Shown: piece after piece, positions 11,587 through 36,278 of the stretch | Numbering within the stretch: position 1 is the stretch's first letter | How the letters are laid out: each line of letters opens with the position of its first letter | From: a virus | Taxonomy: Duplodnaviria; Caudoviricetes | Length of the DNA stretch: 40,337 bases | Virus record (IMG/VR): IMGVR_UViG_3300017912_003721 | Coordinates: 1 to 40,337 of that record | Strand: one strand, 5' to 3' | Notes under the pieces: generated by a model | Database searches by the model: none | Told to the model about the DNA's origin: nothing | The model's input: only the letters and a program-made list of their open reading frames with translations | Position numbers and translations under genes: made by a program

Positions 11587-11643
11587 TAACTATAACCTTA
11601 TTAATATACTAATAAATATATATTTTAAACCCTAAACAAGTGA

Positions 11644-14372: not shown

Positions 14373-14571
14373 TGAAAACCTCTATACACAAAACGTTGTT
14401 GTCATTTATCATGATAATTCTACCATCTTTTGTTTCTAATTTAGTCATCTGACCTTGTTTTATCTCAGCAGTTTTTATACCTTCAAAAGTTCGTTTTACA
14501 CCACCAACAAAATGTATAATTTGAGTAACATAATCACCTTGTGATTTTAATGATGATTGTAAATCTGGCAT
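14365..14571 (-). CDS. small hypothetical protein
   Basis: 68-aa beta-rich ORF; TGATG coupling with the upstream gene. Confidence 0.65.
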   Translation of the reverse strand: MPDLQSSLKSQGDYVTQIIHFVGGVKRTFEGIKTAEIKQGQMTKLETKDGRIIMINDNNVLCIEVFSE

Positions 14572-15851: not shown

Positions 15852-16851
15852 TGATTAAACCCTTTAATATGTTGTAAAAATGTATGACTAAATTTTTTGC
15901 ATCGTATTGTTCGATAAAAGATTTTCTAAAATTATAAACCAATCTATTTCTTATGTTATCATAATCAGATAAAACGTAATCAATCTTTTCCTCTAGATCA
16001 GACCAATCATATTTTACAGCTATGTAAGTTTTATTATCTTCATAAATAAATGGTTTTGATAAAATATAACTCATATCAGGTTCGATCAATACAGAACCTA
16101 ACATAGCAGATTGAACATCTCTTGGATTCATTTCACCAAATCCAATCGGTGACATTATAATTTTAGACTTTGACATTTTCTGAAAATATTCTTCACCCGA
16201 TACCTTTTTACCATTTTCTAATCCAATGTAATTATATTTTGGTGTTATTTTTTCTAATAGTTTCTTTCTATGACTCTCGTAATATTCGTTTTGATATAAC
16301 CCATGTTCATAATTTTTTGTAATAATAGGATAACCAAACATGCAAGATATATCATATTTTTTTTCATTAAAAACATTATACCATCGTGGAGTTATCGTAG
16401 ATAACCAATTACAACCAGTTAGTTTCATTTTAGGTTTAAGTTGATCAATGTCTGGCACAGAATAATTTCCCTTTCCCCAATACATTCTACCATTAGCCCA
16501 ACCTTGTTTGTATAAATTAAAGTCTTTAAGATAACTGTTCTTTAGAAATAGTATAGCATTTGACTCTCTGAAAACGTCTATCGTTCCTATCAAAGATGTT
16601 GAATCTTGACCATCGACTATAAAATAATCACCTGTAATTTTTGATACAAATTCTAACCCCTTATCAACAGATTCTTGAAGTGGTTTCTTTTTATCTATAA
16701 TACTGGCTTGACCAACAAAGGCATAATCGTAAGTATCACCACTGGTAAACTCTATACCAACATCACGAAACAAGTTTTGTGCCATAAGAAATGGTCTAAA
16801 TGTTGTTTCATTTCTATGAACTTGATGTTCACATAACTTTATCTTAATCAT
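15844..16851 (-). CDS. GT-B/group-1-like glycosyltransferase (paralog of 7291..8307)
   Basis: MIKIKL start; SKIIMSPIGFGEMNPRD...LIEPDMS...TYIAVKYDWSDL. Confidence 0.65.
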   Translation of the reverse strand: MIKIKLCEHQVHRNETTFRPFLMAQNLFRDVGIEFTSGDTYDYAFVGQASIIDKKKPLQESVDKGLEFVSKITGDYFIVDGQDSTSLIGTIDVFRESNAILFLKNSYLKDFNLYKQGWANGRMYWGKGNYSVPDIDQLKPKMKLTGCNWLSTITPRWYNVFNEKKYDISCMFGYPIITKNYEHGLYQNEYYESHRKKLLEKITPKYNYIGLENGKKVSGEEYFQKMSKSKIIMSPIGFGEMNPRDVQSAMLGSVLIEPDMSYILSKPFIYEDNKTYIAVKYDWSDLEEKIDYVLSDYDNIRNRLVYNFRKSFIEQYDAKNLVIHFYNILKGLINE

Positions 16852-17486
16852 CTTTTTATACCACTTATCTCCTCATTATAAAATCTATTCTGTTCTACTT
16901 GTTTTTCTATTGTTTTTGGGTGTAGTATACAAAATGGTTTATCAGTTGGTAATGTAGCATAAGTTTTATAACCTGTTATCTGTTCATGAACTTTCTTTTG
17001 CCATCTGATATTTGGTCGATTACGAAATATTCTACCTTGCCAATCAGGAAAGTTTACCCATCCATTCTCATCTAATCTGTATCCATAGGCTCTACAATGT
17101 TCTTCTGTTATCCCATCTACTGTATTTATTCGTGGTAATAAAATTAAATCTATTCCCTCATTACCAGCTATGATCTCGTGTACATTTTGAATCATCCATC
17201 TACTAATCATTTCATCAGCATCAAGATTAAAACTATAATCACCACTACCCATGTTCTTTAGGTAATTCTTTTGTGAAGCAAAATCACCCAATAGATTTCT
17301 TTGTTCATATACTATATCATGTGCTGATACATAGAAATCTAATATCTGTTTGGTCTTTTCATTGTCGGAATAATCATCTAAGATAACAATCTCATCTTGT
17401 GGTTGTTTCCACTTGACTAAAAACTTTAGTAATTTTTCTAAAGTCTTGTCTTCATTATGGACTAACATAGAGTAACTTATTTTCAC
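16848..17486 (-). CDS. glycosyltransferase family 2
   Basis: EIVILDDYSD, FNLDADE, PDWQGRIF, VHEQI. Confidence 0.88.
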   Translation of the reverse strand: MKISYSMLVHNEDKTLEKLLKFLVKWKQPQDEIVILDDYSDNEKTKQILDFYVSAHDIVYEQRNLLGDFASQKNYLKNMGSGDYSFNLDADEMISRWMIQNVHEIIAGNEGIDLILLPRINTVDGITEEHCRAYGYRLDENGWVNFPDWQGRIFRNRPNIRWQKKVHEQITGYKTYATLPTDKPFCILHPKTIEKQVEQNRFYNEEISGIKR

Positions 17487-17959
17487 TTTAATATATCCTC
17501 TTTTAAATCCACTACTTGAGCACCAGTAATATTATCAAATTTATAACTACGATATGCCTTTGCAAAATCAGGATCAGCTTTTATAACCTGTTTATAATAT
17601 CTCTCAGGTGTTATCTGACTTCGTTTTCTAAATGCTGATATCGGCACTCTTGTAAAATCTTTACTAACACCAACTACCTTTTCATCCTTCTGTATTTCTG
17701 TTTGTAATCTAGTTCTAGTTAATTTAAATATTTTCTTTACTTTTGGTAAAACCAAGTAATTTAAATTTATACCCTCTATTAGTTTTTTACCTCTATCAAC
17801 ATATAAAACAAGGACAATTGGAGTGTAGTCATTAGTTTTTGCACCAGCTCGTTGAGTGCTGTAATCAAAATTTAGGATCATACCTTCCATAATCTGAGCA
17901 GTACTTATTACATGATCAGATTTTATTATTCTACTATGGTGTTTGTACTTTGTCGCCAC
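17483..17959 (-). CDS. putative T4 gp2-like DNA end-protector protein
   Basis: GMILNFDY...YTPIVLV...IEGINLNYL...YRSY resembles the gp2 pattern G.MY.F.Y...D.FPL...GLNLHYL. Confidence 0.45.
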   Translation of the reverse strand: MATKYKHHSRIIKSDHVISTAQIMEGMILNFDYSTQRAGAKTNDYTPIVLVLYVDRGKKLIEGINLNYLVLPKVKKIFKLTRTRLQTEIQKDEKVVGVSKDFTRVPISAFRKRSQITPERYYKQVIKADPDFAKAYRSYKFDNITGAQVVDLKEDILK

Positions 17960-18338
17960 TTCTTGTTTCCATCATTTGTATCACGACATAGGCATCGTAA
18001 AATGTTGGCATAGATACATCTTCGGCATTGAGAATCGATTGATCTCTTATCACCCATGTTAGTTTGTCTTCGACTATCTTTGGTGCTATCATATATTTTT
18101 CGGTTTGATATATTGCCGGTATCCACCATCGATCATTAACTTGTCTACAGACATTGATAAAATCTTTAGGATAGTTTTCTAAGATATCACCGATCTCACC
18201 TTTGTACTTTGAATTAGAAGCATACCCACAGTTTGTACACTGCATATTCTGTTGATCATCACCAAGTAATATCAGAGAGTTGTTTATATCACTCCCATCT
18301 TCTAAACACAAAGGGCATTGAACTTCTAAGAACATCAA
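17934..18338 (-). CDS. zinc-ribbon hypothetical protein
   Basis: CPLC...CTNCG. Confidence 0.7.
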   Translation of the reverse strand: MMFLEVQCPLCLEDGSDINNSLILLGDDQQNMQCTNCGYASNSKYKGEIGDILENYPKDFINVCRQVNDRWWIPAIYQTEKYMIAPKIVEDKLTWVIRDQSILNAEDVSMPTFYDAYVVIQMMETRSGDKVQTP

Positions 18339-19696
18339 GTAACCTTCTTCAACTTAGGTAGTTTGATTTTTGCCGATGGTTTATTATTTTTTGTCTTCGT
18401 TAACTTAGGTAATTTTAGTGATACTGGTTTTGGTGTTTCAGGAATTTGTGAAATAACATTATCCAACATCTTATTGAATTCTTTTTTCATAGTATCAAGA
18501 GAATGTTTTTTACGATTTGTCATTCCTAATATTTTAGCCTGATGTTTTAGTTTCTTATGATTCTTCTTGAAAAATCTAAGTTTTCTTATAATATCACCTT
18601 CATCAGCACAAAACCATTTACTTGGTTCTACTAAAATTGGTTTCCATATCATACTCTTTGGCACTGGTTTTAATTCACCCTCAATCAAAGTAGATTGTTT
18701 TGGATTCAAGAAGTCCATCTGACCACTCCAACCTGTAGCAATAACTGGTAAGTCACAACATGTAGCTTCAGCCAATGGTCGTCCAAAACCCTCACCATGT
18801 GTACAACTCAACATAGCTTTGACCTTGGGTAAGTTATACAACAGAGCCATTTGTTCTAATGTCAAATCACCATGTAGTAAATAAATATTAGGTAAGGAGT
18901 CAGCGGATTTAAACTTATCCTTTTCCTTCTGTATCTTTTTTATCACATCATCTTTATCCAAATGTGAGAAGTCAGCACCATTGGTTTTCAATAACAATGC
19001 TGGTGGATTTGGTTGATTAGCAAATGCCTGTAGAAAACATTTTATCATTACAGCTATATTTTTTCTATCTTCACCGTACTTCCCTTTACCCCACTGACCT
19101 ACATGAAGAAATACAAATGATTCATCAATCATATCATAGATTTCTTTTTTAAACGGATCATCACTTTTACCGGCATCTTTAATGGGTTTGTATATAGTAG
19201 TATCAATTCCCTCAGATAAAACCCCCATAGGTGAAGTAAGTTTTACTTGACCAACAACTTGATTCTGACCGTTTACCTCTTTAGTTTGATCATAAGCACA
19301 TCTATGAAAATTAGCCGCAGTAAACTTAGAGGTAGCGAGATTTAAATTCATCTGATTACAACCCATGAGAAACTCAGGTGAAACCACATCAGTTTCTACA
19401 CCAGCAGTTATCCCAATATTAAATTTTGCTGGAGTTTGAAACTCATTTGGTATTCTTATATCAATATAGATATCAGGTTGTTGAATATTTTGACCATCAG
19501 TGAACGTATCTAACAACTTCTTATGTTTTGGTATTTTGGGATCAAGATGATTTCGTGGAGTCTCACCCCAACGAACATCAACACATTTAATTTCAAAATC
19601 TTCTCTATCCATTATTGAATAAAAGATAGAACGAGCATGATCTCCATAACCACTACGGGTATTAAACGGAGCACACATCAATACTTGTTTCTTCAT
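18335..19696 (-). CDS. glycosyltransferase family 4 (GT-B)
   Basis: SGYG, FLHVGQW, RKNI, HGEGFGRPLAEA...PVIATGWSG. Confidence 0.9.
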   Translation of the reverse strand: MKKQVLMCAPFNTRSGYGDHARSIFYSIMDREDFEIKCVDVRWGETPRNHLDPKIPKHKKLLDTFTDGQNIQQPDIYIDIRIPNEFQTPAKFNIGITAGVETDVVSPEFLMGCNQMNLNLATSKFTAANFHRCAYDQTKEVNGQNQVVGQVKLTSPMGVLSEGIDTTIYKPIKDAGKSDDPFKKEIYDMIDESFVFLHVGQWGKGKYGEDRKNIAVMIKCFLQAFANQPNPPALLLKTNGADFSHLDKDDVIKKIQKEKDKFKSADSLPNIYLLHGDLTLEQMALLYNLPKVKAMLSCTHGEGFGRPLAEATCCDLPVIATGWSGQMDFLNPKQSTLIEGELKPVPKSMIWKPILVEPSKWFCADEGDIIRKLRFFKKNHKKLKHQAKILGMTNRKKHSLDTMKKEFNKMLDNVISQIPETPKPVSLKLPKLTKTKNNKPSAKIKLPKLKKVT

Positions 19697-21060
19697 ACTT
19701 TCTCCATAGTGTAACGAATTCTAGGTTTCCAATTATCAAAAGCACCATTCATAGATTTGATAAAGTTCTCACCCATAGCAGTTGCTGTCATTTGATTTTC
19801 TCTACAGAACTTAGTACCAAGAGCACCAAGTCGTTTTCTTTCTTCTCTACCCATGTCATAAAACTCTCTGAGATTTACAGCCACATCTTCAGGATTACAT
19901 CTATCGTCCCAAATATATGGAGTTGGTGGTGAACCTTGTAGAGATATTGACGCTGGATAAACAGGTTTTACCCACTCTCCATGAGTCTTATACTTACCTC
20001 TGTGATTACTACCTAATTCAATATAATCCTCTGCTGTTAATAGGTTTCCTTCATCATCTCTCAAACCACATTGGTCTTGTAATCCACCAGTCATATTTAC
20101 AATGATTGGTGTTCCAACTGTGAGTGCTTCACAACTACCCAATCCAAATCCTTCGTTACTAGCCATGTTAACATAAACATCAGCAGAGTTAAACAATAGA
20201 TTCATTAACTTGTCATCAAATGGTTGTCCATTGTTTATCGTATATGTAAAGGCCACATTATAGTCTGGCATCAGATGTCTACACACTCGTGGTAAATCAG
20301 TTCCGTTGGGATCACTTGGAGCACAATGAAATATCAATACACAATCATCTCTTTCTTCTTCTGGCAAAGCATCTACGAAATACTTGTATGCCAACACTAC
20401 ATCACCAGGCATTTTTCTACGAATGTTTCTATTACTATACAGAACTCTAAACTTCTTGTTAGCAAATCCAAATTTATCATTAAATGCTAACATATCAGTA
20501 TCAGTGTCTTCTACTTTTTTAAACCTACGTTGTGAAATTCCATGTGGTACATAAGTTGTTTGCCAATCTTCGTAATCAGGTAATAATCTGTTATTTATAC
20601 CATAGGTTTGTTTTGATATTGACATTAATAAATCAGAACTTCTGTAGTATAATTCATTGTATTGTGGATCTGGTAAATCATCCCATATATTGTAATAGAA
20701 TATCGGAATATCCCTACGAATCTCTGCTTCCATTTTGTATAACCAAATCCAAAATCTAGGATCAGTATAGTGAAGTATAGCATCAGGTTTTTCTACCTTC
20801 ATAATCTCTCTTAGTAAAGGACCATCACCATAACCATCAGTTGGATATACTTTTAAATAACCATTTTTAATTCCATAATCTTCCAAACCTGCAGACATAT
20901 CAAAAACCTTACCTTTATCAGGATGTTTGATAGCCCCAGCAATCTGAACCCAATCGTATTCATTGAGTGTTTCCATCACGATATCCTTAGACACTTTGGC
21001 AATCCCACTGTGCATTCTCAGATCATCAGATAGTAATAATATTTTCTTTTTCTTACTCAT
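19693..21060 (-). CDS. glycosyltransferase family 4 (GT-B)
   Basis: KILLLSDD...SGIA, NRNIRRK, SNEGFGLGSCEA...GTPII. Confidence 0.9.
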   Translation of the reverse strand: MSKKKKILLLSDDLRMHSGIAKVSKDIVMETLNEYDWVQIAGAIKHPDKGKVFDMSAGLEDYGIKNGYLKVYPTDGYGDGPLLREIMKVEKPDAILHYTDPRFWIWLYKMEAEIRRDIPIFYYNIWDDLPDPQYNELYYRSSDLLMSISKQTYGINNRLLPDYEDWQTTYVPHGISQRRFKKVEDTDTDMLAFNDKFGFANKKFRVLYSNRNIRRKMPGDVVLAYKYFVDALPEEERDDCVLIFHCAPSDPNGTDLPRVCRHLMPDYNVAFTYTINNGQPFDDKLMNLLFNSADVYVNMASNEGFGLGSCEALTVGTPIIVNMTGGLQDQCGLRDDEGNLLTAEDYIELGSNHRGKYKTHGEWVKPVYPASISLQGSPPTPYIWDDRCNPEDVAVNLREFYDMGREERKRLGALGTKFCRENQMTATAMGENFIKSMNGAFDNWKPRIRYTMEKV

Positions 21061-21925: not shown

Positions 21926-22770
21926 TTACAATGCTCCGTATCATAGAACTCACAGAATTTACAAGCACTGCCTGGTGAGGCGTTGTATTCTCTATCGGTT
22001 CTATAGTTCCCCTTTGAATCAAATATAAGTTCACGAAACTCATTGAAAGCTTTGTTCACTTTATTAAGAGTAACACTACCATGAGCAGGCTCAAATCTTT
22101 GTAACCTACTGATAGGCCAATCACTCTTCTTTGGTACTTTACGTTTTAGTATTAGGAACTCAACAGATATCTTATCCAATGGAACACCAAACTTCTCAGA
22201 GTATTTTTGTTTATACAATATCAACTGAGATGTTTTGTAGAAGTTCTTTTTGTGATAATCTGTCCAGCTACGGGTTGAAGTTTTAAGGTCAATTATTTTT
22301 ATGTTATCATTTATCTTGTTCTTGATCACTACATCTAAAAAGGATTTGAACTGAACACCCTCTTGTGGTTGATCAAATATAGGAAGTTCAATACCAACTA
22401 ACTCATAGTTCTTCTTCATGAAATACTTAGCACGATCTTTCTTGAATCCTTCGATTATTGCCACACCATCTTCATAAAACTCTGTTAGTTCTTTTTGATC
22501 ACACACATCTACTTTATGTTGTTCACGAATCTGTGTAAACTCTTTGATCATCTCTTCTTTCAACATCGTGACTAAATCCATAGAGTCTGCTGATTTGATT
22601 GACTTGTTATAAAATTCAGTTAGATATGCCTGTATCGTAGTGTGCATAGCAGTTCCAAATACAGTGTGAATACTACCACTGAATTTACTGAGTTTATCTA
22701 TATAACGAAGTTTCCACTTTAGGTTACATTCGTTATAGGCACTGAACTGTGAATGTGATATTGACTTCAT
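21907..22770 (-). CDS. Cas4/AddB-like PD-(D/E)xK exonuclease with a probable 4Fe-4S cluster
   Basis: ISHSQ...EC, GTAMH, FLDVV, IIDLKT, QLILY, CKFC...C; start reassigned to ATG 22770 (ATGA overlap with the clpP-like stop). Confidence 0.85.
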   Translation of the reverse strand: MKSISHSQFSAYNECNLKWKLRYIDKLSKFSGSIHTVFGTAMHTTIQAYLTEFYNKSIKSADSMDLVTMLKEEMIKEFTQIREQHKVDVCDQKELTEFYEDGVAIIEGFKKDRAKYFMKKNYELVGIELPIFDQPQEGVQFKSFLDVVIKNKINDNIKIIDLKTSTRSWTDYHKKNFYKTSQLILYKQKYSEKFGVPLDKISVEFLILKRKVPKKSDWPISRLQRFEPAHGSVTLNKVNKAFNEFRELIFDSKGNYRTDREYNASPGSACKFCEFYDTEHCKWGKIL

Positions 22771-23366
22771 ACTATCTCGTCTATCATCCCATACTCTAAA
22801 CAAGTCTTGGCATCCCACATCAAGTCGTGTTTCAATATCTCATCTAATTTCTTCATAGGTAGTTTAGTGTATTTTTTATAAATGTCTTTTATTGTTTTCA
22901 TCATTAAGTCTAAGTTTTTCTTCTCATCCTCAAAGTTACTGTATGTTCCCCAAAAGGTGCTTGATAACTGATGAACCAACATATATGAATTTCTACTCAT
23001 GTATCTTTTCTCACCGACCACAGTTAAAAATGTAGCGGCACTGGCAGAAAATCCATCGACATAAGTTTCAATTGGAACTTGACATCTTAGCATTGTATCC
23101 ATAGAAGCAATACCACTCACGATAGTTCCACCACCTGAATTAATAAACACCTTTATTGATGGTGGTAATATACCAAGAGTATTTGACAAAGTCAAGCTTT
23201 TTGCTTCTAATTCACTAATTTTTTTATTCAACTCAACACAAGAGTTTCTGTTGACACCAGAGTAAAAGTATATTCGATTGTCTTGAACTGATATGTGTTT
23301 TTCAGTTGCTTGATTTCCAGCCTTTCTCGGTGCTTTTTCTTTCTTTGCTCCCCAATGTGTATTCAC
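22767..23366 (-). CDS. clpP: ClpP-family serine protease
   Basis: INSGGG, GFSASAA (Ser), MLVHQ (His), HDLMWDA (Asp), GMIDEI. Confidence 0.85.
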   Translation of the reverse strand: MNTHWGAKKEKAPRKAGNQATEKHISVQDNRIYFYSGVNRNSCVELNKKISELEAKSLTLSNTLGILPPSIKVFINSGGGTIVSGIASMDTMLRCQVPIETYVDGFSASAATFLTVVGEKRYMSRNSYMLVHQLSSTFWGTYSNFEDEKKNLDLMMKTIKDIYKKYTKLPMKKLDEILKHDLMWDAKTCLEYGMIDEIV

Positions 23367-23726: not shown

Positions 23727-24059
23727 CTACTTTGATAATTGTAATATAACAATAATAATTGATAAAAACAAGCTTATTATTGTTTTTGTGTCTGGCAATT
23801 CATCCAATACAAACCAAGCTAATGTTCCAAATGTAATTGTAGCAACACTAAATCCTATCGGTCTGACATACCAATAATTGTTAAAATATTCATAATACCA
23901 TCTGGTTGAATAGAAAAACATATAGCTGACAGGTATTCCAGCTAAACCCACAACCCACCATTGTCTCATCCATTCATATTTGAACTGACCATTCATCTGC
24001 ATCCAAGCAATAATATTACCCACTACTGAAAACAAAAGTGCCATTAAAAATTTATTCAT
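23727..24059 (-). CDS. small 4-TM membrane protein (SMR/DMT-like)
   Basis: Four hydrophobic segments in 110 aa. Confidence 0.6.
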   Translation of the reverse strand: MNKFLMALLFSVVGNIIAWMQMNGQFKYEWMRQWWVVGLAGIPVSYMFFYSTRWYYEYFNNYWYVRPIGFSVATITFGTLAWFVLDELPDTKTIISLFLSIIIVILQLSK

Positions 24060-26353: not shown

Positions 26354-28864
26354 TTAGAAGAATCTTTCGATAGTATTTTGTTTATCAACCGGCATATCCC
26401 AAGACAGAGCATCATAGAACATCTGTATTTTCTTGTTCAAAGCACGATTGTATAACTTATCTCTATCGATATATTGTTTGATGAAATCCATCAATTCTTT
26501 GGGATCATCATATCCCTTGTAAGCCAAAGCATCTAACTGAAATGGATTGTTCTTTAGGTAAACCCATTTGATCTTACTGGCATTTCTAATCGGTTCTAAG
26601 TGATTAGATTTGTAATGAGATAGTAAATCATTGTATGCCAGAGAAGCTTTAACATGAGCTGGTGTACCACTTTTTGGTATTCTGAATATACCACCACTCT
26701 TAGTTCCTAAATATTTTTTCATACCTTTCACACCACTAGGTAGAGCAATATCATCTATATTATGATCACTCAAACTACTTTTGAACTTTAGTATAAACTG
26801 ATCTATCTTATCCTTTTCATAATTATGTAGAATAGCCTTCAATACATTTGTCATAAACTTTTGAAATGCTGGTGGAAATGAACTCCTCACAATATCCAAA
26901 CCTTTTACATCCAACTTCTCACATTCCAAACCACCATCATTGATAATCCATTGACCATATCTTTTCTTGGTAACCCAAAACGCTGACTTAGCAATCACCT
27001 CTTGTTTGATATCAAACCTGTGATCTTCACCAATGTTTAGAAACTTCTTGGCAAAATACATATAGGATTTATTAATATACTCTTGAACCTCAGAAGCAAT
27101 ATCTAGAATTTGCTCGGTCATAAACTTATCATCACTAATATCGGCATCAGGATATCTCTTCTTCACCAAAGGTATAGCAGAATAGAATACAGAATCAGTA
27201 TCAGTGTAGATACAATAATCCTCATCAGTACCCAAAAGATTATTATAATAGTGATTCGTTACCTTCTCTGTAAACTGAATCAACTTTACACCTGTGGTGG
27301 TGGTAGCCTCGGCATTGTCAATATCGTAAAACCTAAACACGGTCAACCCCAATACGCCATAGAAACTATTCAGAAGAATCTTCTGAACATATTGTCTCCT
27401 ATCAAAATAACCATGCAGTTCATCGTTACCTTCCTTACCATACTTCTTGGACAAACCCTTGTATTCGACTCTTTCGTTGAACCACTTTTCAAGTATCGCT
27501 GGTATGATACCACGTTGAGATGTTTTATAGACAACACCATTTGAAGCTACCGACACCTCATTTTTATTAAAGAAATCTTTTAACTCACCAGTAGAGAATG
27601 TTCTCAACTTCTCCTTACCTTGGTAGAATGAATAAGTTTTTTGCTCACCCTTGATAAACTCTTCAGCATCCCAACCAGCAAGTTTACCAATCTTAGTTTC
27701 AGGTGATATATTCAGAGACATAATAGTAGATGGATACATAGAGGTCAAGTCCAAATCATATACCCATTCATATCTACCTGGATTGGGATCTTTTACATAA
27801 GCACCACTGAACCTACCAGCAGAATCATCATAACTGGCATCATGTCTTTTACTAGGAGCAACTAAGTTCAACTTACGTAAGTAAGTCAACATAGCTCCCT
27901 CGATATATCTAGAACTAAAATACACTTCCTCATAAGGTATTCTACCCATATGAGATACAGCACGAGCAAGGTCGATCAACTTCAACTTTTCTTCTAATGC
28001 CACCACAATCTTCACATCAACCAAATTATATTCAATAAACTTATCAATATCATTCTCTAACAACTGATCCAATGTACCTTCATATTCGACCTTACCCATG
28101 TCAACTTCTATTTGACCTATGTAATCCAAGCGATAACTTGATCTCTGAACATAGGTAAACTTTCTATACAACTCAATATAATCCAAACTACTGACACCAG
28201 CAATCCTATACTTCTTTTTATTCTGATTATATCTAACTTGTTGAATAGGTGATAGAGCATTAGCAAACTCCTCACCGAAAACTTTTTTGATTCTATTATA
28301 CAAATAAGGTGTATCAAACTGATCTATATTCCAACCACTGATGATTGTAGGTTTAGCATCTAACCAAAACCTAAGAAACTCTTGTAACAAGTCTGCCTCA
28401 TTCTTAAAAAACCTAACCAAAGCACCACTTTTCTCTTCATCTTTTCTATCACCTAAGACATAAACATAAGACTTATCATCATGTGATGTTTGAAATGCTA
28501 TAGATGTAATTTTATTCTCAGCCTGTGCTGGTTCAGGAAAACCATCAGTAACTTCAACCTCAATATCATAATATAAAATACGATGATTCTCTGAGACATC
28601 ATCTGAATCAGGATATCTATCAATTAGAATACGAGTCTCCAATGGAATATCAGATTCAAACACACGACCAGTCTTGAAATCTTCTTCTGTCCAATAACCT
28701 ACTTTCTTTAACTTATCCCCATAGATAGATTGGTATTGACCAGCACCATCCTTTACATACGCATAATTCTTAAAGATAAAGTTTTGATAACCAGCTTTGT
28801 CATCCCAAAGATGAACCTCTACTTGATTACTTGCTCGTTTTTCACACCAGATATTTTGATACAT
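26354..28864 (-). CDS. family B DNA polymerase (gp43-like)
   Basis: ExoI YDIEV, ExoII GWNIDQFD, ExoIII YNLVD, DLTSMYPS, KILLNSFYG, YTDTDS, KKRY. Confidence 0.97.
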   Translation of the reverse strand: MYQNIWCEKRASNQVEVHLWDDKAGYQNFIFKNYAYVKDGAGQYQSIYGDKLKKVGYWTEEDFKTGRVFESDIPLETRILIDRYPDSDDVSENHRILYYDIEVEVTDGFPEPAQAENKITSIAFQTSHDDKSYVYVLGDRKDEEKSGALVRFFKNEADLLQEFLRFWLDAKPTIISGWNIDQFDTPYLYNRIKKVFGEEFANALSPIQQVRYNQNKKKYRIAGVSSLDYIELYRKFTYVQRSSYRLDYIGQIEVDMGKVEYEGTLDQLLENDIDKFIEYNLVDVKIVVALEEKLKLIDLARAVSHMGRIPYEEVYFSSRYIEGAMLTYLRKLNLVAPSKRHDASYDDSAGRFSGAYVKDPNPGRYEWVYDLDLTSMYPSTIMSLNISPETKIGKLAGWDAEEFIKGEQKTYSFYQGKEKLRTFSTGELKDFFNKNEVSVASNGVVYKTSQRGIIPAILEKWFNERVEYKGLSKKYGKEGNDELHGYFDRRQYVQKILLNSFYGVLGLTVFRFYDIDNAEATTTTGVKLIQFTEKVTNHYYNNLLGTDEDYCIYTDTDSVFYSAIPLVKKRYPDADISDDKFMTEQILDIASEVQEYINKSYMYFAKKFLNIGEDHRFDIKQEVIAKSAFWVTKKRYGQWIINDGGLECEKLDVKGLDIVRSSFPPAFQKFMTNVLKAILHNYEKDKIDQFILKFKSSLSDHNIDDIALPSGVKGMKKYLGTKSGGIFRIPKSGTPAHVKASLAYNDLLSHYKSNHLEPIRNASKIKWVYLKNNPFQLDALAYKGYDDPKELMDFIKQYIDRDKLYNRALNKKIQMFYDALSWDMPVDKQNTIERFF

Positions 28865-28896: not shown

Positions 28897-28926
28897 AATA
28901 TACGAAAAAAACCCTATATAAGTCAA
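28897..28926 (-). promoter_or_regulatory. sigma70-type promoter TTGACT-N18-TATATT upstream of the DNA polymerase
   Basis: Minus strand TTGACT tatatagggtttttttcg TATATT, immediately after a terminator. Confidence 0.6.
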
Positions 28927-28939: not shown

Positions 28940-28966
28940 AAAAAGGGGGATATATTTCAATCCCCC
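28940..28966 (-). terminator. rho-independent terminator after the TonB-dependent receptor
   Basis: GGGGGAT-TGAAATAT-ATCCCCC-TTTTT on the minus strand. Confidence 0.85.
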
Positions 28967-28978
28967 AATTTCATCATC

Positions 28979-31729
28979 TTAGAAATTAACAGTTAGTCCT
29001 AAGTTGTAGTATCTTGGTGTACCCAAAAATACTTCAGCATTATGAGCCAAGTGAAGTTTATCACCATAGCCATTGTACTTACTGTTATCAGTAGCATCTT
29101 GAACATATACATTGTCAAGAACATTAAAGACATGACCATGTAAGGTCAAGTCCAAACCAGCAATCTCTGGTAGTTTGTATGATAAGTGTAGGTCGAGTTT
29201 GTTATAGCCAGGAGCTTTCCAAACTTGTGCTCTATCCTCATCACCCGTTACCTCACGAGATTCTGGTGACCAATCAGCGTAATTGTCATCATAGACTTTC
29301 AATAGTCCTTGAATGTTCAATCCTTTGATTGGTTTTAGTGTTAAACCACCAACATAAGCAGTTTGTGGCATATCACCAACTTTTAGATTGTTTAGAGCAT
29401 AAACATATTCGGTTGTCATCTGTCCGATAATCTGACCTTCTTCATTATACTCTTGTTCTAAGTAGTCACCTTTGGCATCTCCATCGAACTTCCAATCACC
29501 TTTACTGAAAGCAAGGTCTACATCAACCATTTCGTGTAGGGCAACTTTAGCCTCTACCTCAACACCAGTATGACTTTGATTTACACCAGTAAGATAAATG
29601 ATGTCTGTGTCACCTGAGTCACCAGCACCAGTTTCTACATTACGAGTTAGGTTTCTATCTTTCCATTGTGTGTTGTAGTAACTACCTTTGATAGCAACAT
29701 TACCACTTCTGTAAGAACCACCAACCTCTGCTGATGTGAACTTCTCATTATCTGGATTGGAAGAAACATTACCATCGTAGTCAATCACATTGTCTAAGAT
29801 TGGTGGTTTCTGAACATATCCAAGATTAGCAAAAGCAGATAATCTGTCATCAAGATTATAAACACCACCACCCTTTACTTGAAAGGTTGTGATGGATGGA
29901 GCTTCTACAAGTTCCTTCTCAACAGAAAAATGGTCTTGATAAGAATATCCAATTGTGGATACCCCACCCATACCATATAGATTTAACTTAGCGATGTCGT
30001 ATTTACCTTGTACGAAAGCACCGAACCAATCAACTGTAGTATTGTTATGGTAGGCAATAATATCACCTAAACCAACTTTCTTACCATCTGGTGCATTGTC
30101 ATCAGCGTAGTCTACATAGTAGTCTCCACCGAGTAAATCACGAACTTCTCTAGCATGTTCGATTCCAGCCGTTCTCCAATCAATACCAACTTGAACTTCT
30201 AAGTCATCGTTGACATCATAGTTTAGTTTGGAAATCAAACCATAGGTATTTTGCCTATTGATTGAATTACGAAGTATACCTGTGGAACGGTTTTCGGTTT
30301 CTGACCATGTTGAATCTACATTAGCAGAGTTCTGAGCAATCTCAGCATTCCAATCCCAAGTCCAAGGTGAAGATGCATACCAAGGTTCTCCCTCAACTGC
30401 TGGAGCTCTTGATACACTTCCGTAAGTACCAGTTCCACCGCCAGAACCACCACTCCAATATAAGATTGAACTTACTTTGATTTGATCGTTTACGTTGTAG
30501 AAGTGGTTAAGGTTAACTAATGGTTTATGAAAGAAGTTTTCTCTTTCGTTTAGCAGACCACCAATCTTTCGATCTTGTAATCCACCACCGAATAATCCAC
30601 CTTCTCCATACATATACCAATACTGTTGACCTTTATACTCAGTATCAACGGGTGCCCAATTTTGGTTAAAGAACCTACCAGCTTCAGTTTCAAACTTCTC
30701 ACCTTCAGCGAAAGCAGTTTCATCGTATCCATCGATATCACCAGCTAACTCTTGTGAATAAGTTGTTATGTTCTGTTTGTATAGGTTCTGTCCATGTCTT
30801 TGTGGAGCACCAATTGCATATAACTCAAACCTTTGGTCATCAGACACAGCGTATGAACCACCTACATAGTAAGCCCACGCATCTGTCCAAGTTCCATCGA
30901 TAAGACCATCACCAGTTTTACGAACAATCGTTCCACTAAGTGCTAACTTATCTCCGATAAGACCAGAGTTATAATTGAGTGTTGTTTTCTTGAAACCAGC
31001 AGCACCGATTTCTTGTTTGACCTTACCACCCTTTTCAAGAGCAGCAGGATCTGTTATGATGTTCATAGTTCCACCAATAGATGGTGTAGCAAGATTAACA
31101 GCTGATAGACCTCTTTGCATCTGAATGGAAGAAGTAGCATCTCCTACTCCATCCCAATTGGACCAATAAACCCATCCGTTCTCCATATCATTCTGAGGAA
31201 CACCGTTTATCATCACTGCAACATTTCTTTGGTTGAAACCACGTACATTGATACGAGCATCACCCGCACCACCACCTTGACCAGTAGCATATACTGATGG
31301 TGTCATATTCAGAGACATTGGAATATCTTGTGAACCAAGACGAATTTCCATCTCTTCTTTAGTCACCGTTGTATAAGCAACAGGTGTTTTTTCATCAGCC
31401 CTAGAAGCCAAGACCTCAAGTGCTGTTAGAGCAACTGCATCAATTTCCAATAGAAAATTTACAGTTCCTACTATGTCATTCACCGTAACAGGATTCGTTA
31501 CTGATGAATACCCTATGAATGAAGCAGTTACATCATAGTCACCAGATTTACCAATATCGATAGTGTACTTACCATTAAGATCAGATACACCACCTTTCTC
31601 AGTTCCCTCGACAACTACATTGGCTCCAGCCAAAGGTTTTGAGTTCACATCTGTCACTACACCCACGATAGTTTGAGCAAACAAACCACTTGTTAGTAGA
31701 ACAGAAGTGATAAGATTACGATAATTCAT
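28979..31729 (-). CDS. TonB-dependent outer-membrane receptor with N-terminal carboxypeptidase-regulatory-like domain
   Basis: Signal peptide MNYRNLITSVLLTSGLFA|Q; GVVTD..KPLAGANV domain; plug INVRGF...MINGVPQND; beta-barrel; C-terminal YNLGLTVNF; GAGGAG RBS. Confidence 0.93.
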   Translation of the reverse strand: MNYRNLITSVLLTSGLFAQTIVGVVTDVNSKPLAGANVVVEGTEKGGVSDLNGKYTIDIGKSGDYDVTASFIGYSSVTNPVTVNDIVGTVNFLLEIDAVALTALEVLASRADEKTPVAYTTVTKEEMEIRLGSQDIPMSLNMTPSVYATGQGGGAGDARINVRGFNQRNVAVMINGVPQNDMENGWVYWSNWDGVGDATSSIQMQRGLSAVNLATPSIGGTMNIITDPAALEKGGKVKQEIGAAGFKKTTLNYNSGLIGDKLALSGTIVRKTGDGLIDGTWTDAWAYYVGGSYAVSDDQRFELYAIGAPQRHGQNLYKQNITTYSQELAGDIDGYDETAFAEGEKFETEAGRFFNQNWAPVDTEYKGQQYWYMYGEGGLFGGGLQDRKIGGLLNERENFFHKPLVNLNHFYNVNDQIKVSSILYWSGGSGGGTGTYGSVSRAPAVEGEPWYASSPWTWDWNAEIAQNSANVDSTWSETENRSTGILRNSINRQNTYGLISKLNYDVNDDLEVQVGIDWRTAGIEHAREVRDLLGGDYYVDYADDNAPDGKKVGLGDIIAYHNNTTVDWFGAFVQGKYDIAKLNLYGMGGVSTIGYSYQDHFSVEKELVEAPSITTFQVKGGGVYNLDDRLSAFANLGYVQKPPILDNVIDYDGNVSSNPDNEKFTSAEVGGSYRSGNVAIKGSYYNTQWKDRNLTRNVETGAGDSGDTDIIYLTGVNQSHTGVEVEAKVALHEMVDVDLAFSKGDWKFDGDAKGDYLEQEYNEEGQIIGQMTTEYVYALNNLKVGDMPQTAYVGGLTLKPIKGLNIQGLLKVYDDNYADWSPESREVTGDEDRAQVWKAPGYNKLDLHLSYKLPEIAGLDLTLHGHVFNVLDNVYVQDATDNSKYNGYGDKLHLAHNAEVFLGTPRYYNLGLTVNF

Positions 31730-31760
31730 AATCGTTCTCCTCGTTGTTCATTAATGAAAA

Positions 31761-31794
31761 GACACATTTTTCTACAGGTGTGTCGTCTGCCTGT
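31761..31794 (-). other. predicted H-type RNA pseudoknot in the TBDR leader
   Basis: ACAGG-CAGAC-GACACA-CCTGT-AGAAAAA-TGTGTC: S1 ACAGG/CCTGT, S2 GACACA/TGTGTC, A-rich loop 3, followed by TTTT. Confidence 0.6.
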
Positions 31795-31801
31795 CCGCTT
31801 T

Positions 31802-33814
31802 TTAGTTTGCATATTCTTGATCGTCATTATCACCATGCATTGGTGGGATTTCACAACTATCGTTGTTACAGAACTTATCGACATCAGCCTCTTCATTCTT
31901 TATCACACCAAAGGATAGTTTACCAAGTTTCTTTACTTGTTTATTGTATTCTTCTTCATCAATAGCTTCATAAGGCATTTGTTTATACGCACCATAATCA
32001 TGTCGTGGTAATAACGAAATACCTTTCAGATGATATTGATAATAATTCAAACATGGAGCAATTTGATCTGCTTCTGTTTGAGGATCAAATGTAACCGTAC
32101 AACTAACTTGGTTGTCTGCCCAATGTCGTTGTAAAAACGCAGCCAATGAGAATTGTTCCCAAATGGAGAGTTCGGAAGCAGTTCTGATTCCCTCTCCCAC
32201 ATCTACGGGCACTTCAACAACCATAGTAGTATCCTCAGAACCAAATGCTGGTTCTACTAAGTATCCAGCTTTTTTCAATGGTTCTAGTAATTCCGAATGT
32301 TTTGATAACCTAATTCTTCTAATATAAAATCTTGATTCAGGATAGTGAAGTCCTGGTGTAGCACCAGCTAATAGAGATACAGTTCCACTTGGTTTTACAC
32401 TCGTAGTTTTGATACTACGAGGCACTGCCATCCAATCTGAATAACTTTTATCCCACGTTTGAATAACATCGTATCCATTGTTCAACCACTGTTGAAACTC
32501 ATCTATTCCTCTGTTGGTAACAAACTGAGCAACACCACTTACTGAACAACCAATTCTTCTGTTTCTCAACATTACTCTATTTGTATCTGACCAATGAGTT
32601 CTACCCAATGTTACTGTTTTAGCATACAGATAAGCATATTTCAAAGTCTTAGCATAATCATCAAAATCATCGTGATTATCAGGAAATGTTTCTACCAAAC
32701 AACATAACTCGTATGATTCTAATGATTGTTCTAAACAAGGATTACCACCCATAACTCTATGGTCTTTGTTATCTCCACCATTTTTCATACGAGAATATTT
32801 TCTCATATTGTCTAACCATGCAAATCCAGGCTCACCATTATCCACAATTCGTTTGGCAGCTTCTGTATAATCCATACCCAATTCAGCGAATATACTATTA
32901 TTACTAGTCCATCCATATGTCTCCCTATGTGGGTTTACTTTATAATTCTTTAGGTCTAAATACTCTTCTGAATGTGGATCTCCAAACACAATCTCTGCTG
33001 TTCTTCTAACATTACCAGCCACGACACACTTACCAATGAGATTCATAATATCCACGATTGTTGTTATTGTGATTGGTTCTCCACTATTCTTTTCCAAAAC
33101 CTGTCTGATTTCTTCATGTACTTCTTCCAATGGTTCATAACCACTAGCAACACCACCAAATCCACTTATCGGTTCACCAGCTGCTCTTATCTTTGAGTAG
33201 TCAAAACTCACTGGTGCTTGACCATGAAAGTAACTTTCTAATAATAACTTCAGAGACTCAACCCAACCTTCACGAGTATCAGGTATTTCGTATACTTGGT
33301 CGTCACGACTTTTTTCAACTCCCTTAATTACTATCTCTCCAGCACCTTTGGTGTCAAATCCTACACCAACACCTAACATACTGGCATCCATAAGGAAACA
33401 GAAAGGTTTAGCATAATCTTCCTTTAGTGTTTTCGTTGATACGAAAGCACAATTGTTTAGGGCGGCATATAATCCTTTGTCTTCTGTAATGGACGTTCCC
33501 ATAGCCCACAGACCACGACCAGGTGGCAAGAACTTCATAGTAAAAATACGCTCATACATTTCTTGAGCTGATCTTTGTGCTTGCCAGGGATTCCACCCTA
33601 ATTGATGTGATTCAATCCAATTCATTTGCATCGTGTAAGTCCCCTCGACCACACGTTGAACAGTTTCCCACCATCGTTCATTCTTTCCATTATCTTTGAT
33701 TCTTGAATAAGTTCTCATATAAACCAACTCACCCAACCCATTGAAACCAAACGGAGCTTTTCTTCTTTTGTACTTATTGATAAAATTCTCCGATAGTGTA
33801 AACTTCTTTTTCAT
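31802..33814 (-). CDS. nrdJ: class II (adenosylcobalamin-dependent) ribonucleotide reductase, monomeric RTPR type
   Basis: RTYSR, PPGRGLW, LNNCAF, GGNPCLEQ, ELCCLVE, TTSVKPSGT, C-terminal CxxxxC; start reassigned to MKKKFT. Confidence 0.93.
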   Translation of the reverse strand: MKKKFTLSENFINKYKRRKAPFGFNGLGELVYMRTYSRIKDNGKNERWWETVQRVVEGTYTMQMNWIESHQLGWNPWQAQRSAQEMYERIFTMKFLPPGRGLWAMGTSITEDKGLYAALNNCAFVSTKTLKEDYAKPFCFLMDASMLGVGVGFDTKGAGEIVIKGVEKSRDDQVYEIPDTREGWVESLKLLLESYFHGQAPVSFDYSKIRAAGEPISGFGGVASGYEPLEEVHEEIRQVLEKNSGEPITITTIVDIMNLIGKCVVAGNVRRTAEIVFGDPHSEEYLDLKNYKVNPHRETYGWTSNNSIFAELGMDYTEAAKRIVDNGEPGFAWLDNMRKYSRMKNGGDNKDHRVMGGNPCLEQSLESYELCCLVETFPDNHDDFDDYAKTLKYAYLYAKTVTLGRTHWSDTNRVMLRNRRIGCSVSGVAQFVTNRGIDEFQQWLNNGYDVIQTWDKSYSDWMAVPRSIKTTSVKPSGTVSLLAGATPGLHYPESRFYIRRIRLSKHSELLEPLKKAGYLVEPAFGSEDTTMVVEVPVDVGEGIRTASELSIWEQFSLAAFLQRHWADNQVSCTVTFDPQTEADQIAPCLNYYQYHLKGISLLPRHDYGAYKQMPYEAIDEEEYNKQVKKLGKLSFGVIKNEEADVDKFCNNDSCEIPPMHGDNDDQEYAN

Positions 33815-33886
33815 GTATTTTGCCTCTGAAACGTTCTTGTTATGAATTATTACCAAATATAAATATAATATATACGAGCACTATTC

Positions 33887-34924
33887 TCATTTTTTAAACA
33901 CAAATATCGGTTCATATTTATATCCAGCACCCATTACACTCGATAATGTTAATTCGATTGTTTTTTCTTGTTTAAACCCTAGCTCCTTAGATATCCTAAT
34001 GGTTTCCTCTTCAATAAATTTATACTTTGGTGTGTTTGCTATATTGATTAACATGTATTTATTACCCTTTAATCCTCTGTAGCAATTCTCAATAGTCTTT
34101 TGTAAAAATCCATTTACCCATTCATCCTTAGTCGGATACTTAACATAGCTCTGTGTTTCTTCATCCGAGTATTTCTCAGTATCAAAATAAGGTGGTGAAG
34201 TGAAACACAAGTCCAAAGAATCCTTCTCTGGCTCAAAAACTTCACTACCTAATTTATGTAATTCTACTGACTTTGTCAAGTAATTAAAATCTTTTTTTAT
34301 CCTTTTCAATCCCTCAAATGTTTTGCTTGATGGTTCTGTTCCTATATACTTTGGTCGTGAACTTGCTAGAAAACCTATAAGTCTTCCACCCCAGCCACAA
34401 CTCATATCCCAAATCACATCACCACCAAACTTCTCATATATCAGTTTAGCAGCACTTGGTCGAAAGTTACTTACGGCTTGTGAGTTAGTGTGGATCTTTA
34501 GAATCTTTCTAATCGTATTATCATTTACACGATTAAATAACTTCCAACATTTTCTGATAGCACTTTTGAACTTTTCATCACTTGTATAAATATCCATTGG
34601 TGTATATTTTGCACCACCACATTTTACACTCCAAGCATGTGGAAAGTAAGACCAAGCCAATCTCAACCCATGCATTGTTTGTATGATTTGATTGTCTTTA
34701 AATATCGTGTCTATATTAAACTTTTGCATCTTTCTCAAATGCTTGTGTTTCTCATCTTCTCTGATTTGATAATATGGAAACCCATGTTTTCTATAATATT
34801 GATAAACGATTTCTACACCAGTCTCTATATCGTAGTTGTCCTTATCACTTAGAATCTCATAAAATCTAAGATCAGAATCCTCATAACCAAGAAAATCTGT
34901 TAGGGTTTTTCTATTACTAATCAC
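33887..34924 (-). CDS. SAM-dependent amino (N4-C/N6-A) DNA methyltransferase
   Basis: Motif I DMSCGWGGR followed by motif IV FTSPPYF..EKY. Confidence 0.8.
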   Translation of the reverse strand: MISNRKTLTDFLGYEDSDLRFYEILSDKDNYDIETGVEIVYQYYRKHGFPYYQIREDEKHKHLRKMQKFNIDTIFKDNQIIQTMHGLRLAWSYFPHAWSVKCGGAKYTPMDIYTSDEKFKSAIRKCWKLFNRVNDNTIRKILKIHTNSQAVSNFRPSAAKLIYEKFGGDVIWDMSCGWGGRLIGFLASSRPKYIGTEPSSKTFEGLKRIKKDFNYLTKSVELHKLGSEVFEPEKDSLDLCFTSPPYFDTEKYSDEETQSYVKYPTKDEWVNGFLQKTIENCYRGLKGNKYMLINIANTPKYKFIEEETIRISKELGFKQEKTIELTLSSVMGAGYKYEPIFVFKK

Positions 34925-36278
34925 TCATCAAATCATCATAACGAGCAGATAACATCTGTTTCGTCTGATTATCCCTATTTCGTATCTTCTGTTGAACTTC
35001 CTTACCTTGATTAGATGTAGATTCAAATATCTCTATCTTACCTATGTTGGTATTTATCTTTGCTGGAAATGTCAAACCATCAGGACCAAATCTATTCTTG
35101 ATCACATGGAATCTACCTGTATTACCTATCTTATCCTCTACTTTACGAGACAAGGACATTACGAAGTCGGCTGTCATAACCTTTGCATAACTTTCTGCTA
35201 CCTTCGTTGCTTCTATCACATCTTCATCTAAAGCACTTCTGTTTGCCTGACTTGCCGTCCATATCGGAACCTGTAATTCACCAGCCAAACCTCGTAAGTC
35301 CTCGTAAATATTTCCAAGAGCATGTCGCATCTCTTGAGCCTTACCCACATCTCTCATGATGTCAGCATAATCCACCAACACCATGTCTATTTGATTACCA
35401 AAAGATGTTACCTTTTTCAGATGAGCACCCAACGTGTTTACTGTACAAGTTTTTGTTGGATAATACTTTATCGTAAGTTTACCATCAAGATCAAATATCT
35501 TTTCTTGTACATCTTCTTTATGATATTTTAGATTTTGATTCTCTACACCACTGAATATACTATCGTATCTCAACCCCACATAAGCCTCATTCAACTCTAA
35601 GGTGTAGTGAACAACATTCTTTTTCTGAGATAGAGCATAAGCACCCATGGCACTCAACACCCAAGATTTACCAATACCAGCTGGTGCTACAACAACACCA
35701 AGTTCACCAGCACCTAACCCACCTTGCATCAGTTCATTCATCAAATCCCAAGGTGTTGGTGTAGTGACACGAGCAGTTTCAGAATATCTTTCTTCAAAAT
35801 CTTGTAGATAGTCATGTCCTATATCTCTTTCAGCTCCAGCTTTCATAGCATCATCAATAATTACCTTTATCTGTTCTACATCACCATCTACTTCTAATAT
35901 TTGTGCTGATCTCAATATCGCATCTTTCAATACTTGTGTCTTGTGGAAGTCAAGAGCTTTGTCTTTGATATAATCTAACTCTTCTGACTCCAAATATTTG
36001 ACCACCTCACGTAAGGTATCAAGGATATTTTGTTTAAGTAAGTCGTTATCCACTTCACCGACCTGAACCTTAAACACATCCATTGTCATCACTTTTTTAT
36101 ACTTAGAATAATGTTCCTTTATCTCCTTGACTAACCATTTGAAAGCATCATTACCTAAATATTTTTCATCTAATATATCATATATTTGTTCTAAAAATAA
36201 CTTATCTGTAATCAGACATACGATAAACTTTACCTGAAAGTTAAATCCGTATTCCGATATATTTTTTTGTTCACTCAT
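34917..36278 (-). CDS. replicative helicase (DnaB/gp41-like)
   Basis: APAGIGKS, YTLEL, VDYAD, WTASQANR, KNRFG. Confidence 0.95.
   Translation of the reverse strand: MSEQKNISEYGFNFQVKFIVCLITDKLFLEQIYDILDEKYLGNDAFKWLVKEIKEHYSKYKKVMTMDVFKVQVGEVDNDLLKQNILDTLREVVKYLESEELDYIKDKALDFHKTQVLKDAILRSAQILEVDGDVEQIKVIIDDAMKAGAERDIGHDYLQDFEERYSETARVTTPTPWDLMNELMQGGLGAGELGVVVAPAGIGKSWVLSAMGAYALSQKKNVVHYTLELNEAYVGLRYDSIFSGVENQNLKYHKEDVQEKIFDLDGKLTIKYYPTKTCTVNTLGAHLKKVTSFGNQIDMVLVDYADIMRDVGKAQEMRHALGNIYEDLRGLAGELQVPIWTASQANRSALDEDVIEATKVAESYAKVMTADFVMSLSRKVEDKIGNTGRFHVIKNRFGPDGLTFPAKINTNIGKIEIFESTSNQGKEVQQKIRNRDNQTKQMLSARYDDLMSD

Follow-up and report, generated by a model that had tools for sequence, protein, structure and literature searches.

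A gene for an outer membrane transporter stands among the DNA replication genes of a virus, which raises the question of what it could bring into an infected cell. The virus (Caudoviricetes) is represented by IMG/VR record IMGVR_UViG_3300017912_003721, a 40-kb fragment whose 40,337 nucleotides (nt) are called the window here. In the window a gene for a TonB-dependent transporter (TBDT) follows nrdJ, the gene of an adenosylcobalamin (AdoCbl)-dependent ribonucleotide reductase (RNR). The original prediction was that the pair forms an import module feeding deoxynucleoside triphosphate (dNTP) synthesis. Sequence comparison now moderately favours a TBDT that would import nucleotides or short DNA or RNA pieces during infection for dNTP supply, and not B12. 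This reading is based on the family relation of the TBDT to DdbC, on the nucleotide-salvage genes beside its cellular orthologues and on its being unrelated to the B12 TBDTs of hosts. The features concerned are these:

31802-33814, minus strand: nrdJ, monomeric AdoCbl-dependent ribonucleoside-triphosphate reductase, 670 amino acids (aa); TIGR02505, Pfam RNR_Alpha and RNR-II insertion
31730-31801, minus strand: nrdJ-TBDT spacer, 72 nt
28979-31729, minus strand: TBDT, 916 aa, DdbC-like family; signal-peptide-like N-terminus, CarboxypepD_reg, plug, 22-strand barrel, terminal Phe
28945-28966, minus strand: intrinsic-terminator-like hairpin closing the TBDT cassette; spacer fold z -3.4

The layout first described, with nrdJ, a 72-nt spacer, an intact 916-aa TBDT and a terminator lying between the helicase and methyltransferase genes and polB, was confirmed in its coordinates and domains.

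The transporter and its family

Pfam domains CarboxypepD_reg and Plug were identified in the TBDT. The fold predicted by AlphaFold from a 97-row alignment is a plug and a 22-strand barrel (pLDDT 88, pTM 0.86; strands counted from DSSP). A single-sequence prediction gave a pLDDT of 29 and the alignment-based model was used. The N-terminus, read by eye, is hydrophobic and signal-peptide-like. A conserved short beta-like segment before the plug, at about residues 104-109, is a candidate TonB-box region. The terminal F916 is invariant across 18 aligned phage copies, and the plug motifs are invariant in phage and cellular copies. Solved TBDTs matched the model with a structural Z of about 30. BtuB (Z 30.8) tied for the top, and BtuB, FecA, YncD and PqqU lay within 0.3 Z of one another; such a fold search cannot tell the cargo. 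A sequence search of the PDB returned an N-terminal SusC fragment only.

Sequence relatives of known function were found in the DdbC family. By tblastn the TBDT aligned over its full length with a Phocaeicola massiliensis TBDT, L508 (31% identity, 945 columns, E 7e-116), which has a DUF5017 lipoprotein gene downstream. Compared by eye, L508 closely resembles the query for Pv1 DdbC that PMC12478041 prints in its Dataset S4. Within the portion of Dataset S1 of that paper considered here, 24 of 24 P. massiliensis rows and 30 of 33 'massiliensis' rows are scored Pv1. The TBDT of a nuclease-TBDT-DUF5689 locus, which has the Bt/RA0C layout, aligned with the phage protein over 634 columns (HHalign probability 100, E 2e-39). 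An unrelated host TBDT aligned at the N-terminus only. In a FastTree phylogeny, whose long branches are unsure, one branch (support 98) united the phage, orthologue, Pv-like and Bt-like rows, with the B12-led TBDTs outside. BLAST scores over the plug and barrel were 678-1079 bits for orthologues, 287-379 for Pv-like proteins, 144 for the Bt-like protein, 90 for a megaphage TBDT, and 22 or none for B12-led TBDTs. Judged by full-length homology the TBDT is a member of the DdbC family.

The family is known from two systems. According to the sections of PMC12478041 used here, the ddbABCDEF genes of Bacteroidales DNA-utilisation loci, whose transporter is DdbC, are needed for DNA depletion, and the parts of PMC8459023 consulted describe RA0C_RS04915 as needed for natural transformation in Riemerella. 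The phage TBDT shares the CarboxypepD_reg-plug-barrel order, plug signature and barrel motifs of Pv1 and Pv2 DdbC (WP_005843284.1 and WP_117829583.1; Sharan et al. 2025, PMC12478041, those sections). Unlike them it is phage-encoded, stands without a DdbD or nuclease gene beside it and carries a pseudoknot leader of its own; the partners of its orthologues are nucleotide pyrophosphatase/phosphodiesterase (NPP), deoxynucleoside kinase (dNK) or acid phosphatase. The comparison with Bt-type DdbC and RA0C_RS04915 (PMC8459023, same parts) was made through the syntenic stand-in named above; it gives homology over the 634 columns at only 23-25% identity, and no DUF5689 or DUF5017 partner stands at the phage locus. 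DdbD-type and nuclease-type genes are present beside distant cellular family members.

Membership in the named subtypes Bt1, Bt2, Pv1 and Pv2 was rejected. The subtype rule, as given in the sections of PMC12478041 used here, is more than 50% identity and more than 75% coverage to a subtype query; the stand-in identities were 31% and 23%, and the printed queries were compared by eye. Membership in a ddb locus was also rejected, as the phage locus has no adjacent DdbD or secreted nuclease genes. The TBDT thus lies within the DdbC family and outside its named subtypes and loci, and the resemblance makes a DdbC-type nucleic-acid importer a moderately probable identification.

Gene neighbourhoods of cellular orthologues

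Eighty cellular loci were examined and 34 had a same-strand gene within 400 nt downstream. These comprised 13 NPP (PF01663), four dNK, one PhoD, four ABC ATPases, five other and seven unknown genes; a 14th NPP (L215) lay just past the 400-nt cut-off. The 37 upstream genes included three for class C acid phosphatase, directly upstream, and seven for SRAP. Links to nucleotide-salvage neighbours extended over six phyla. An even draw of 151 genomes gave 15 matches. Ten were close orthologues, with NPP directly downstream in five (one of them the seed genome) and divergent in a sixth. The other five were more distant members, four of which were followed and found flanked by LTD, endonuclease I, PLD-like, DUF5689 or split 5'-nucleotidase genes. 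All of these are raw neighbour counts for this one family.

Two further arrangements were seen in cells. The SRAP (abasic-site processing) gene is directly 5' of the Marinimicrobia orthologue at L159, L160, L163, L165, L168, L170 and L194. Tandem family pairs occur at L205, L225, L227, L166 and L181, as an orthologue with a 28%-identical Pv-like paralogue or as two close copies.

The same neighbours could be read differently. NPP, class C acid phosphatase and PhoD are broad phosphoesterases, and the cargo might be another phosphorylated compound or cofactor (NAD/NMN, FAD, sugar phosphates or other phosphoesters) taken up for phosphorus or cofactor supply. The parts of PMC8115612 consulted report TBDTs beside phosphatases that are induced by phosphate depletion in Flavobacterium. 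One related contig carries phoH, and the TBDT of megaphage LR745206, which scores 130 bits against the family profile, lies 5' of pnuC and a nadR-like gene. The dNK, endonuclease I and DUF5689 neighbours and the DdbC relation are nucleic-acid-specific, and this alternative is considered unlikely.

Uptake of long DNA for recombination, in a competence-like manner and as new genetic material for phage or host, would be another use of a DdbC relative. The Riemerella DdbC homologue is essential for natural transformation (PMC8459023, parts consulted), the phage encodes UvsX, and one related contig has pilin-like genes beside a short TonB-like ("mini-TonB") gene. The phage subfamily is, however, closer to the Pv-type (338 bits) than to the Bt/RA0C-type (144 bits), the DdbD partner is absent and the orthologues pair with DNA-destroying hydrolases. 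Long-DNA uptake is therefore regarded as very improbable.

TBDT genes have been described before in phages, namely Mar_Mega_1 and LR745206 (PMC9723777, in part) and a Lak phage (bioRxiv 10.64898/2026.10.24.761521, in part). Like the TBDT studied here, these are phage-borne 22-strand TBDTs proposed as auxiliary genes. They differ in belonging to other families (BFVD match 10% identity; LR745206 protein 660 aa) and in not lying in a replication operon. The roles proposed in the portions of those two sources seen are carbohydrate uptake or exclusion. In LR745206 (L513:3935-7451) the genes following the TBDT are pnuC (PF04973) and the nadR-like gene, and this operon probably serves NAD-precursor salvage rather than carbohydrate uptake. 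The open-access literature searched yielded no paper on a DdbC-like TBDT family in the phages related to the window.

Recurrence, selection and the nrdJ junction

Relatives of the TBDT were found in 372 viral stretches, and the best 80 of the 372 were 67-93% identical to it. A close relative was not found among cultured phages. Viral loci were examined at 225 places, 173 of which had the TBDT; after removal of 63 duplicates and 30 loci without upstream sequence, 80 distinct loci were scorable. In 75 of these nrdJ is immediately 5' of the TBDT, in four a single gene (glutamine synthetase or peroxiredoxin) lies between them, and one has no upstream ORF (open reading frame). The dN/dS of the TBDT against the window copy was 0.11-0.19 in 11 of 11 pairs, and its GC content at third codon positions agrees with that of the core genes. 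The gene is intact and under purifying selection, plug and barrel alike.

A chimeric assembly, which was raised beforehand as grounds for dismissing the locus, is excluded by the independent recurrence of the nrdJ-TBDT order and by DNA contigs that bridge both flanking junctions. Contigs from four DNA runs of four studies cover all 30 bins and span the polB/TBDT junction (X4) and the junction of nrdJ with the methyltransferase gene (X3, X5, X8). A neutral passenger gene or an assembly artefact is accordingly extremely improbable: the TBDT is dispensable in close relatives, but 372 viral relatives, a dN/dS below 0.2, a covarying phage-specific leader and the bridging contigs of other studies speak against it.

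Near-identical contigs from RNA libraries reach from the leader into the first part of the TBDT (X15, 31512-31764, 3 differences; X16, 31605-31798, 6 differences). These are consistent with transcription of the TBDT and are not proof of it. Two RNA runs of one study covered the TBDT far more fully than its neighbours, and two other runs covered all bins. Contig depth cannot rank genes and DNA may be present in such libraries, so RNA-library coverage was not counted as proof of expression.

Nineteen distinct polB-anchored loci span the junction between the RNR gene and polB. The TBDT is present in 10 and absent from 9. Some of the TBDT-less junction loci share 72-74% identity in polB; the RNR of one, L139, is more distant. 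No TBDT was found elsewhere in three of three records of TBDT-less relatives, which are fragments 12-44% complete. The link between nrdJ and the TBDT is one-sided, in that nrdJ is kept without the TBDT. Other genes inserted at the same junction in relatives are glnA (20 copies), dUTPase (11), thymidylate synthase (4) and a PNKP-type phosphatase (4). The dUTPase, thymidylate synthase and PNKP-type inserts favour a role in dNTP supply.

Some of the inserted genes have features of their own. The glutamine synthetase is short, at about 330 aa (L099:1369-2370, L149:4225-5418 and 18 more). Between the TBDT and polB there may be an unknown lipoprotein-like gene of 167 aa (L108:9427-9930 and 12 relatives) or an unknown 504-aa gene (L254:3963-5477 and 6 relatives), neither with a Pfam match.

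Cobalamin as a proposed cargo

The first suggestion for the cargo was cobalamin, with the TBDT as a BtuB-like importer supplying NrdJ. The enzyme is indeed of the kind that would use it. The product of nrdJ scored 369.5 bits against TIGR02505 (monomeric AdoCbl ribonucleoside-triphosphate reductase; cut-off 340.05), and with no class I beta subunit found it is classed as NrdJm of class II. Its start was placed at the ATG at 33814; the ORF-finder call reaches an upstream TTG at 33856. Cysteine-bearing motifs lie at residues 120, 358, 369 and 648, which we take to have catalytic roles.

Several observations fit a cobalamin importer. NrdJ is encoded 5' of the TBDT in 79 of the 80 distinct scorable loci, BtuB ties as the top structural match, one database entry is labelled 'outer membrane cobalamin receptor', and a distant family member, L512, is just upstream of a cobalamin operon. 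Others do not. At L512 the riboswitch follows the family member and heads the gene after it. FecA, YncD and PqqU tie structurally with BtuB. Five long related contigs yielded no class I RNR beta subunit, and when viral contigs were scanned with a distant family member, neither a second phage lineage nor a carrier of class I RNR turned up; as every scorable member of the clade has a class II RNR, adjacency to nrdJ cannot show a B12 link. The BtuB models TIGR01779 and PRK10641 gave no match to the TBDT at E<=0.001.

Riboswitches near the cellular homologues had been proposed as a check, and no cobalamin riboswitch was found in the window or at 11 cellular loci. Five of five carrier genomes have one riboswitch elsewhere, heading a separate TBDT. 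These riboswitch-led host TBDTs reach no more than 15 bits with the family profile, compared to 212-680 bits for DdbC-like proteins, have TonB-B12/BtuB as their best NCBIfam match (below cut-off) and form their own branch apart from the phage TBDT. What the phage TBDT has in common with BtuB and the riboswitch-led B12 TBDTs is the general fold; it lacks their sequence-family match and riboswitch. A cobalamin importer is therefore held to be highly improbable. Of the original prediction, an import module for dNTP synthesis stands as the best-supported idea with a nucleotide source as its cargo, while its B12 version is contradicted by the unrelated host B12 TBDTs, the DdbC relation and the retention of an nrdJ-type RNR without the TBDT at 9 of 19 loci.

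A pseudoknot in the TBDT leader

The spacer between nrdJ and the TBDT had been described as structured. As a nested structure its stability is at chance level (z +0.38), but covariation shows an H-type pseudoknot, and the description is right in that form. Two elements were located:

31761-31794, minus strand: H-type pseudoknot, 34 nt; P1 31794-31790/31778-31774, P2 31784-31779/31766-31761, A-rich loop 3
31737-31741, minus strand: Shine-Dalgarno (SD)-like AGGAG of the TBDT, invariant in 30 aligned leaders

In the 30 aligned leaders 96.4% of cells are paired, against 18-49% in slid controls. Five of the 11 pairs change on both sides, giving 23 such cells, and 0 of 500 shuffles were as high, a test that kinship inflates. 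The pseudoknot ends 12-27 nt 5' of the SD in 125 distinct leaders. Its pattern was matched at 120 viral loci, with the TBDT directly 3' in 109; nine were too short and two had no match within 300 nt. The pseudoknot was absent from 15 TBDT-less phage loci and from 80 cellular loci. Where a gene has been inserted behind nrdJ the leader moves with the TBDT. At a fixed position behind nrdJ, the TBDT forms a cassette that is optional and carries a leader and a terminator of its own. At L015 and L016 the stop codon of the inserted peroxiredoxin falls in loop 3 of the pseudoknot, so that the RNA element overlaps coding sequence.

A covarying structure in the 5' leader is what would be expected of a riboswitch. 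No Rfam family matched the leader, and the covariance model built from it covers P1 only. A terminator or SD-sequestering switch was tried and rejected, with an anti-SD in 0 of 125 leaders and a U-tract in only 15 of 125. Since it is without an expression platform, the leader more likely stabilises the mRNA or serves as an operator for a protein than acts as a classical riboswitch, though it may bind a ligand. The T4 gene 32 operator and the preQ1-I and SAM-II riboswitches likewise combine an A-rich loop with two short stems, and the ribosome-binding region that follows is unstructured; the phage leader differs from them in the missing Rfam match, anti-SD and, mostly, U-tract.

A short TonB_C protein and possible superinfection exclusion

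The original prediction noted that no TonB or ExbBD is present. This holds for the 40-kb window, where no short TonB_C protein was found, and does not hold for the clade: a TonB_C domain above the Pfam cut-off was found in 4 of 5 long TBDT-bearing contigs. The proteins are 104-112 aa, with a signal-peptide-like start and without a long linker, and are encoded at:

L514:2446-2760; L515:2494-2886; L517:2633-2971; L439:10114-10452; also L518-L574: short TonB_C protein

A profile search gave 59 viral TonB_C loci, of which 57 share genes with the long contigs of the clade and two are unrelated 590-aa proteins. The TBDT is within 10 kb at five of the loci. Host TonB_C matches were weaker and mostly in frames over 200 aa (36 of 41 genomes). 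The short gene varies in position and is sometimes just 5' of gp32. In L515, a 120-kb relative, two pilin-like genes (4055-4492 and 4525-5172), one with an N-methylation motif, are beside it. A TonB_C protein that lacks a membrane anchor might serve as adaptor or as decoy.

A decoy would suit superinfection exclusion or envelope remodelling, in which the phage TBDT replaces or dilutes a host receptor and the short TonB_C protein occupies TonB boxes, blocking TonB-dependent phages. Soluble TonB fragments inhibit uptake. The clade proteins are about 110 aa and lack a long linker, and this alternative gains weight because the clade encodes them. TBDTs are phage receptors, and exclusion has been proposed for phage outer membrane proteins in the portion of bioRxiv 10.64898/2026.10.24.761521 seen. 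The invariant plug motifs and the purifying selection on plug and barrel mean that a working transporter fits better than a diversifying decoy. At 916 aa the TBDT would also be a costly means of exclusion next to the small proteins known for it, for example T5 Llp (structure 8a60). Exclusion is judged distinctly unlikely.

Origin and probable host

The nearest cellular copies of the TBDT, among the best 80 of at least 589 relatives, are from Marinimicrobia/Fidelibacterota, at 60-68% identity. In the same set Calditrichota, Ignavibacteriota, Balneolota, Cloacimonadota and Bacteroidota come next. In a FastTree phylogeny, with the same uncertainty of long branches, the 18 phage rows all group with L156 on a single branch (support 99) that nests within the Fidelibacterota rows. 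Of 201 Fidelibacterota genomes sampled, 109 have the family at E<=1e-180. This nesting and this frequency make SAR406 the likely host, and the gene was likely captured from a Marinimicrobia host. The phage clade differs from the uncharacterised orthologue group in which it nests in that the cellular copies have neither the pseudoknot (0 of 80) nor an adjacent RNR gene. L156 (JAFMFP010000048.1) is a 4-kb contig of a Marinimicrobia metagenome-assembled genome whose TBDT is inside the phage branch and has no leader, a possible back-transfer or binning effect.

Genomic context

The minus-strand gene order is gp32, uvsX, RNase H-like exonuclease, DnaB, methyltransferase (MTase), nrdJ, TBDT, polB, clamp and clamp loader. 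The flanking features are:

34917-36278, minus strand: DnaB
33887-34924, minus strand: DNA methyltransferase-like gene (MTase), variable in relatives and outside the module
28897-28926, minus strand: sigma70-like promoter upstream of polB, consensus match only
26354-28864, minus strand: polB, family B DNA polymerase, a context gene

A similar promoter-like sequence is 5' of polB in TBDT-less relatives (nrdJ-polB spacers of L105 and L150). In a 130-kb relative, of whose 123 ORFs 92 were scanned, there are genes for the tail sheath, tail tube and baseplate as well as a T4-like major head protein, which makes the TBDT a myovirus gene. Downstream of the replication genes are many glycosyltransferase and NDP-sugar genes. 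They make up one large continuous glycosylation island (window 1453-21060) with some 20 genes for glycosyltransferase, NDP-sugar epimerase/dehydratase, UDP-glucose dehydrogenase, DegT aminotransferase and 2OG-oxygenase. Within the clamp-loader/exonuclease block there are genes for a ClpP-like protease (22767-23366) and a small four-helix membrane protein (23727-24059).

Proposed role in infection

Phages of small, slow-growing marine bacteria find too few nucleotides in the host chromosome, and they carry enzymes and phosphate-uptake genes to cope. Starting from the gene, selection, cassette, family and neighbourhoods observed above, export, energisation, cargo and benefit may be proposed as follows. 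The phage TBDT would be exported and inserted by the host Sec and BAM machinery, and the infected cell would gain extra copies of a nucleotide or oligonucleotide importer in its outer membrane. Host TonB-ExbBD would energise it, and the short TonB_C protein of the clade may assist or regulate. Cargo in the periplasm would be cut and dephosphorylated by host enzymes of the NPP and 5'-nucleotidase type. Nucleosides would pass the inner membrane and be rephosphorylated by host kinases, NrdJ would reduce ribonucleotides, and NrdJ and polB would consume the salvaged cargo. The pseudoknot would stabilise the TBDT mRNA or bind a regulator.

Several points weigh against nucleotide import. Identity to DdbC is 31% (Pv1-type stand-in) and 23% (Bt-type stand-in), below the subtype cut-off of 50%, and TBDT cargo can diverge at 31% identity. 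DdbD (DUF5689/DUF5017) and secreted nucleases are absent from the window and from the phage neighbourhoods examined. The sections of PMC12478041 covering parts of the main text report no DdbC-only deletions, and according to them Pv2 strains hardly deplete DNA. The Marinimicrobia copies are mostly solitary, with dNK adjacent in 3 of 30 top loci, and dNK was found in 0 of 5 long phage contigs (55-71% complete). Among the upstream genes SRAP is the most frequent (7 of 37), and of the 34 downstream genes 16 are unknown or unrelated. Glutamine synthetase is the most frequent insert at the RNR-polB junction, and the junction may therefore be a general hotspot for auxiliary genes.

A more specific form of nucleotide import would have a DdbC-like channel, a mini-TonB for coupling or gating and a nucleotide-responsive pseudoknot act as one scavenging line, by which infected SAR406 cells recycle the DNA of lysed neighbours into phage genomes. 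This is a tentative and rather doubtful extension. Phage-borne TBDTs as such are already in print; the clade described here consists of widespread ocean phages. It draws attention to two unstudied parts, the phage-specific pseudoknot and the phage mini-TonB. The analysis also proposes a testable cargo for a TBDT present in over half of the sampled SAR406 genomes. If the reading is true, a phage outer membrane importer of nucleotides or DNA would be a new class of auxiliary gene, linking the dissolved-DNA pool to virus production.

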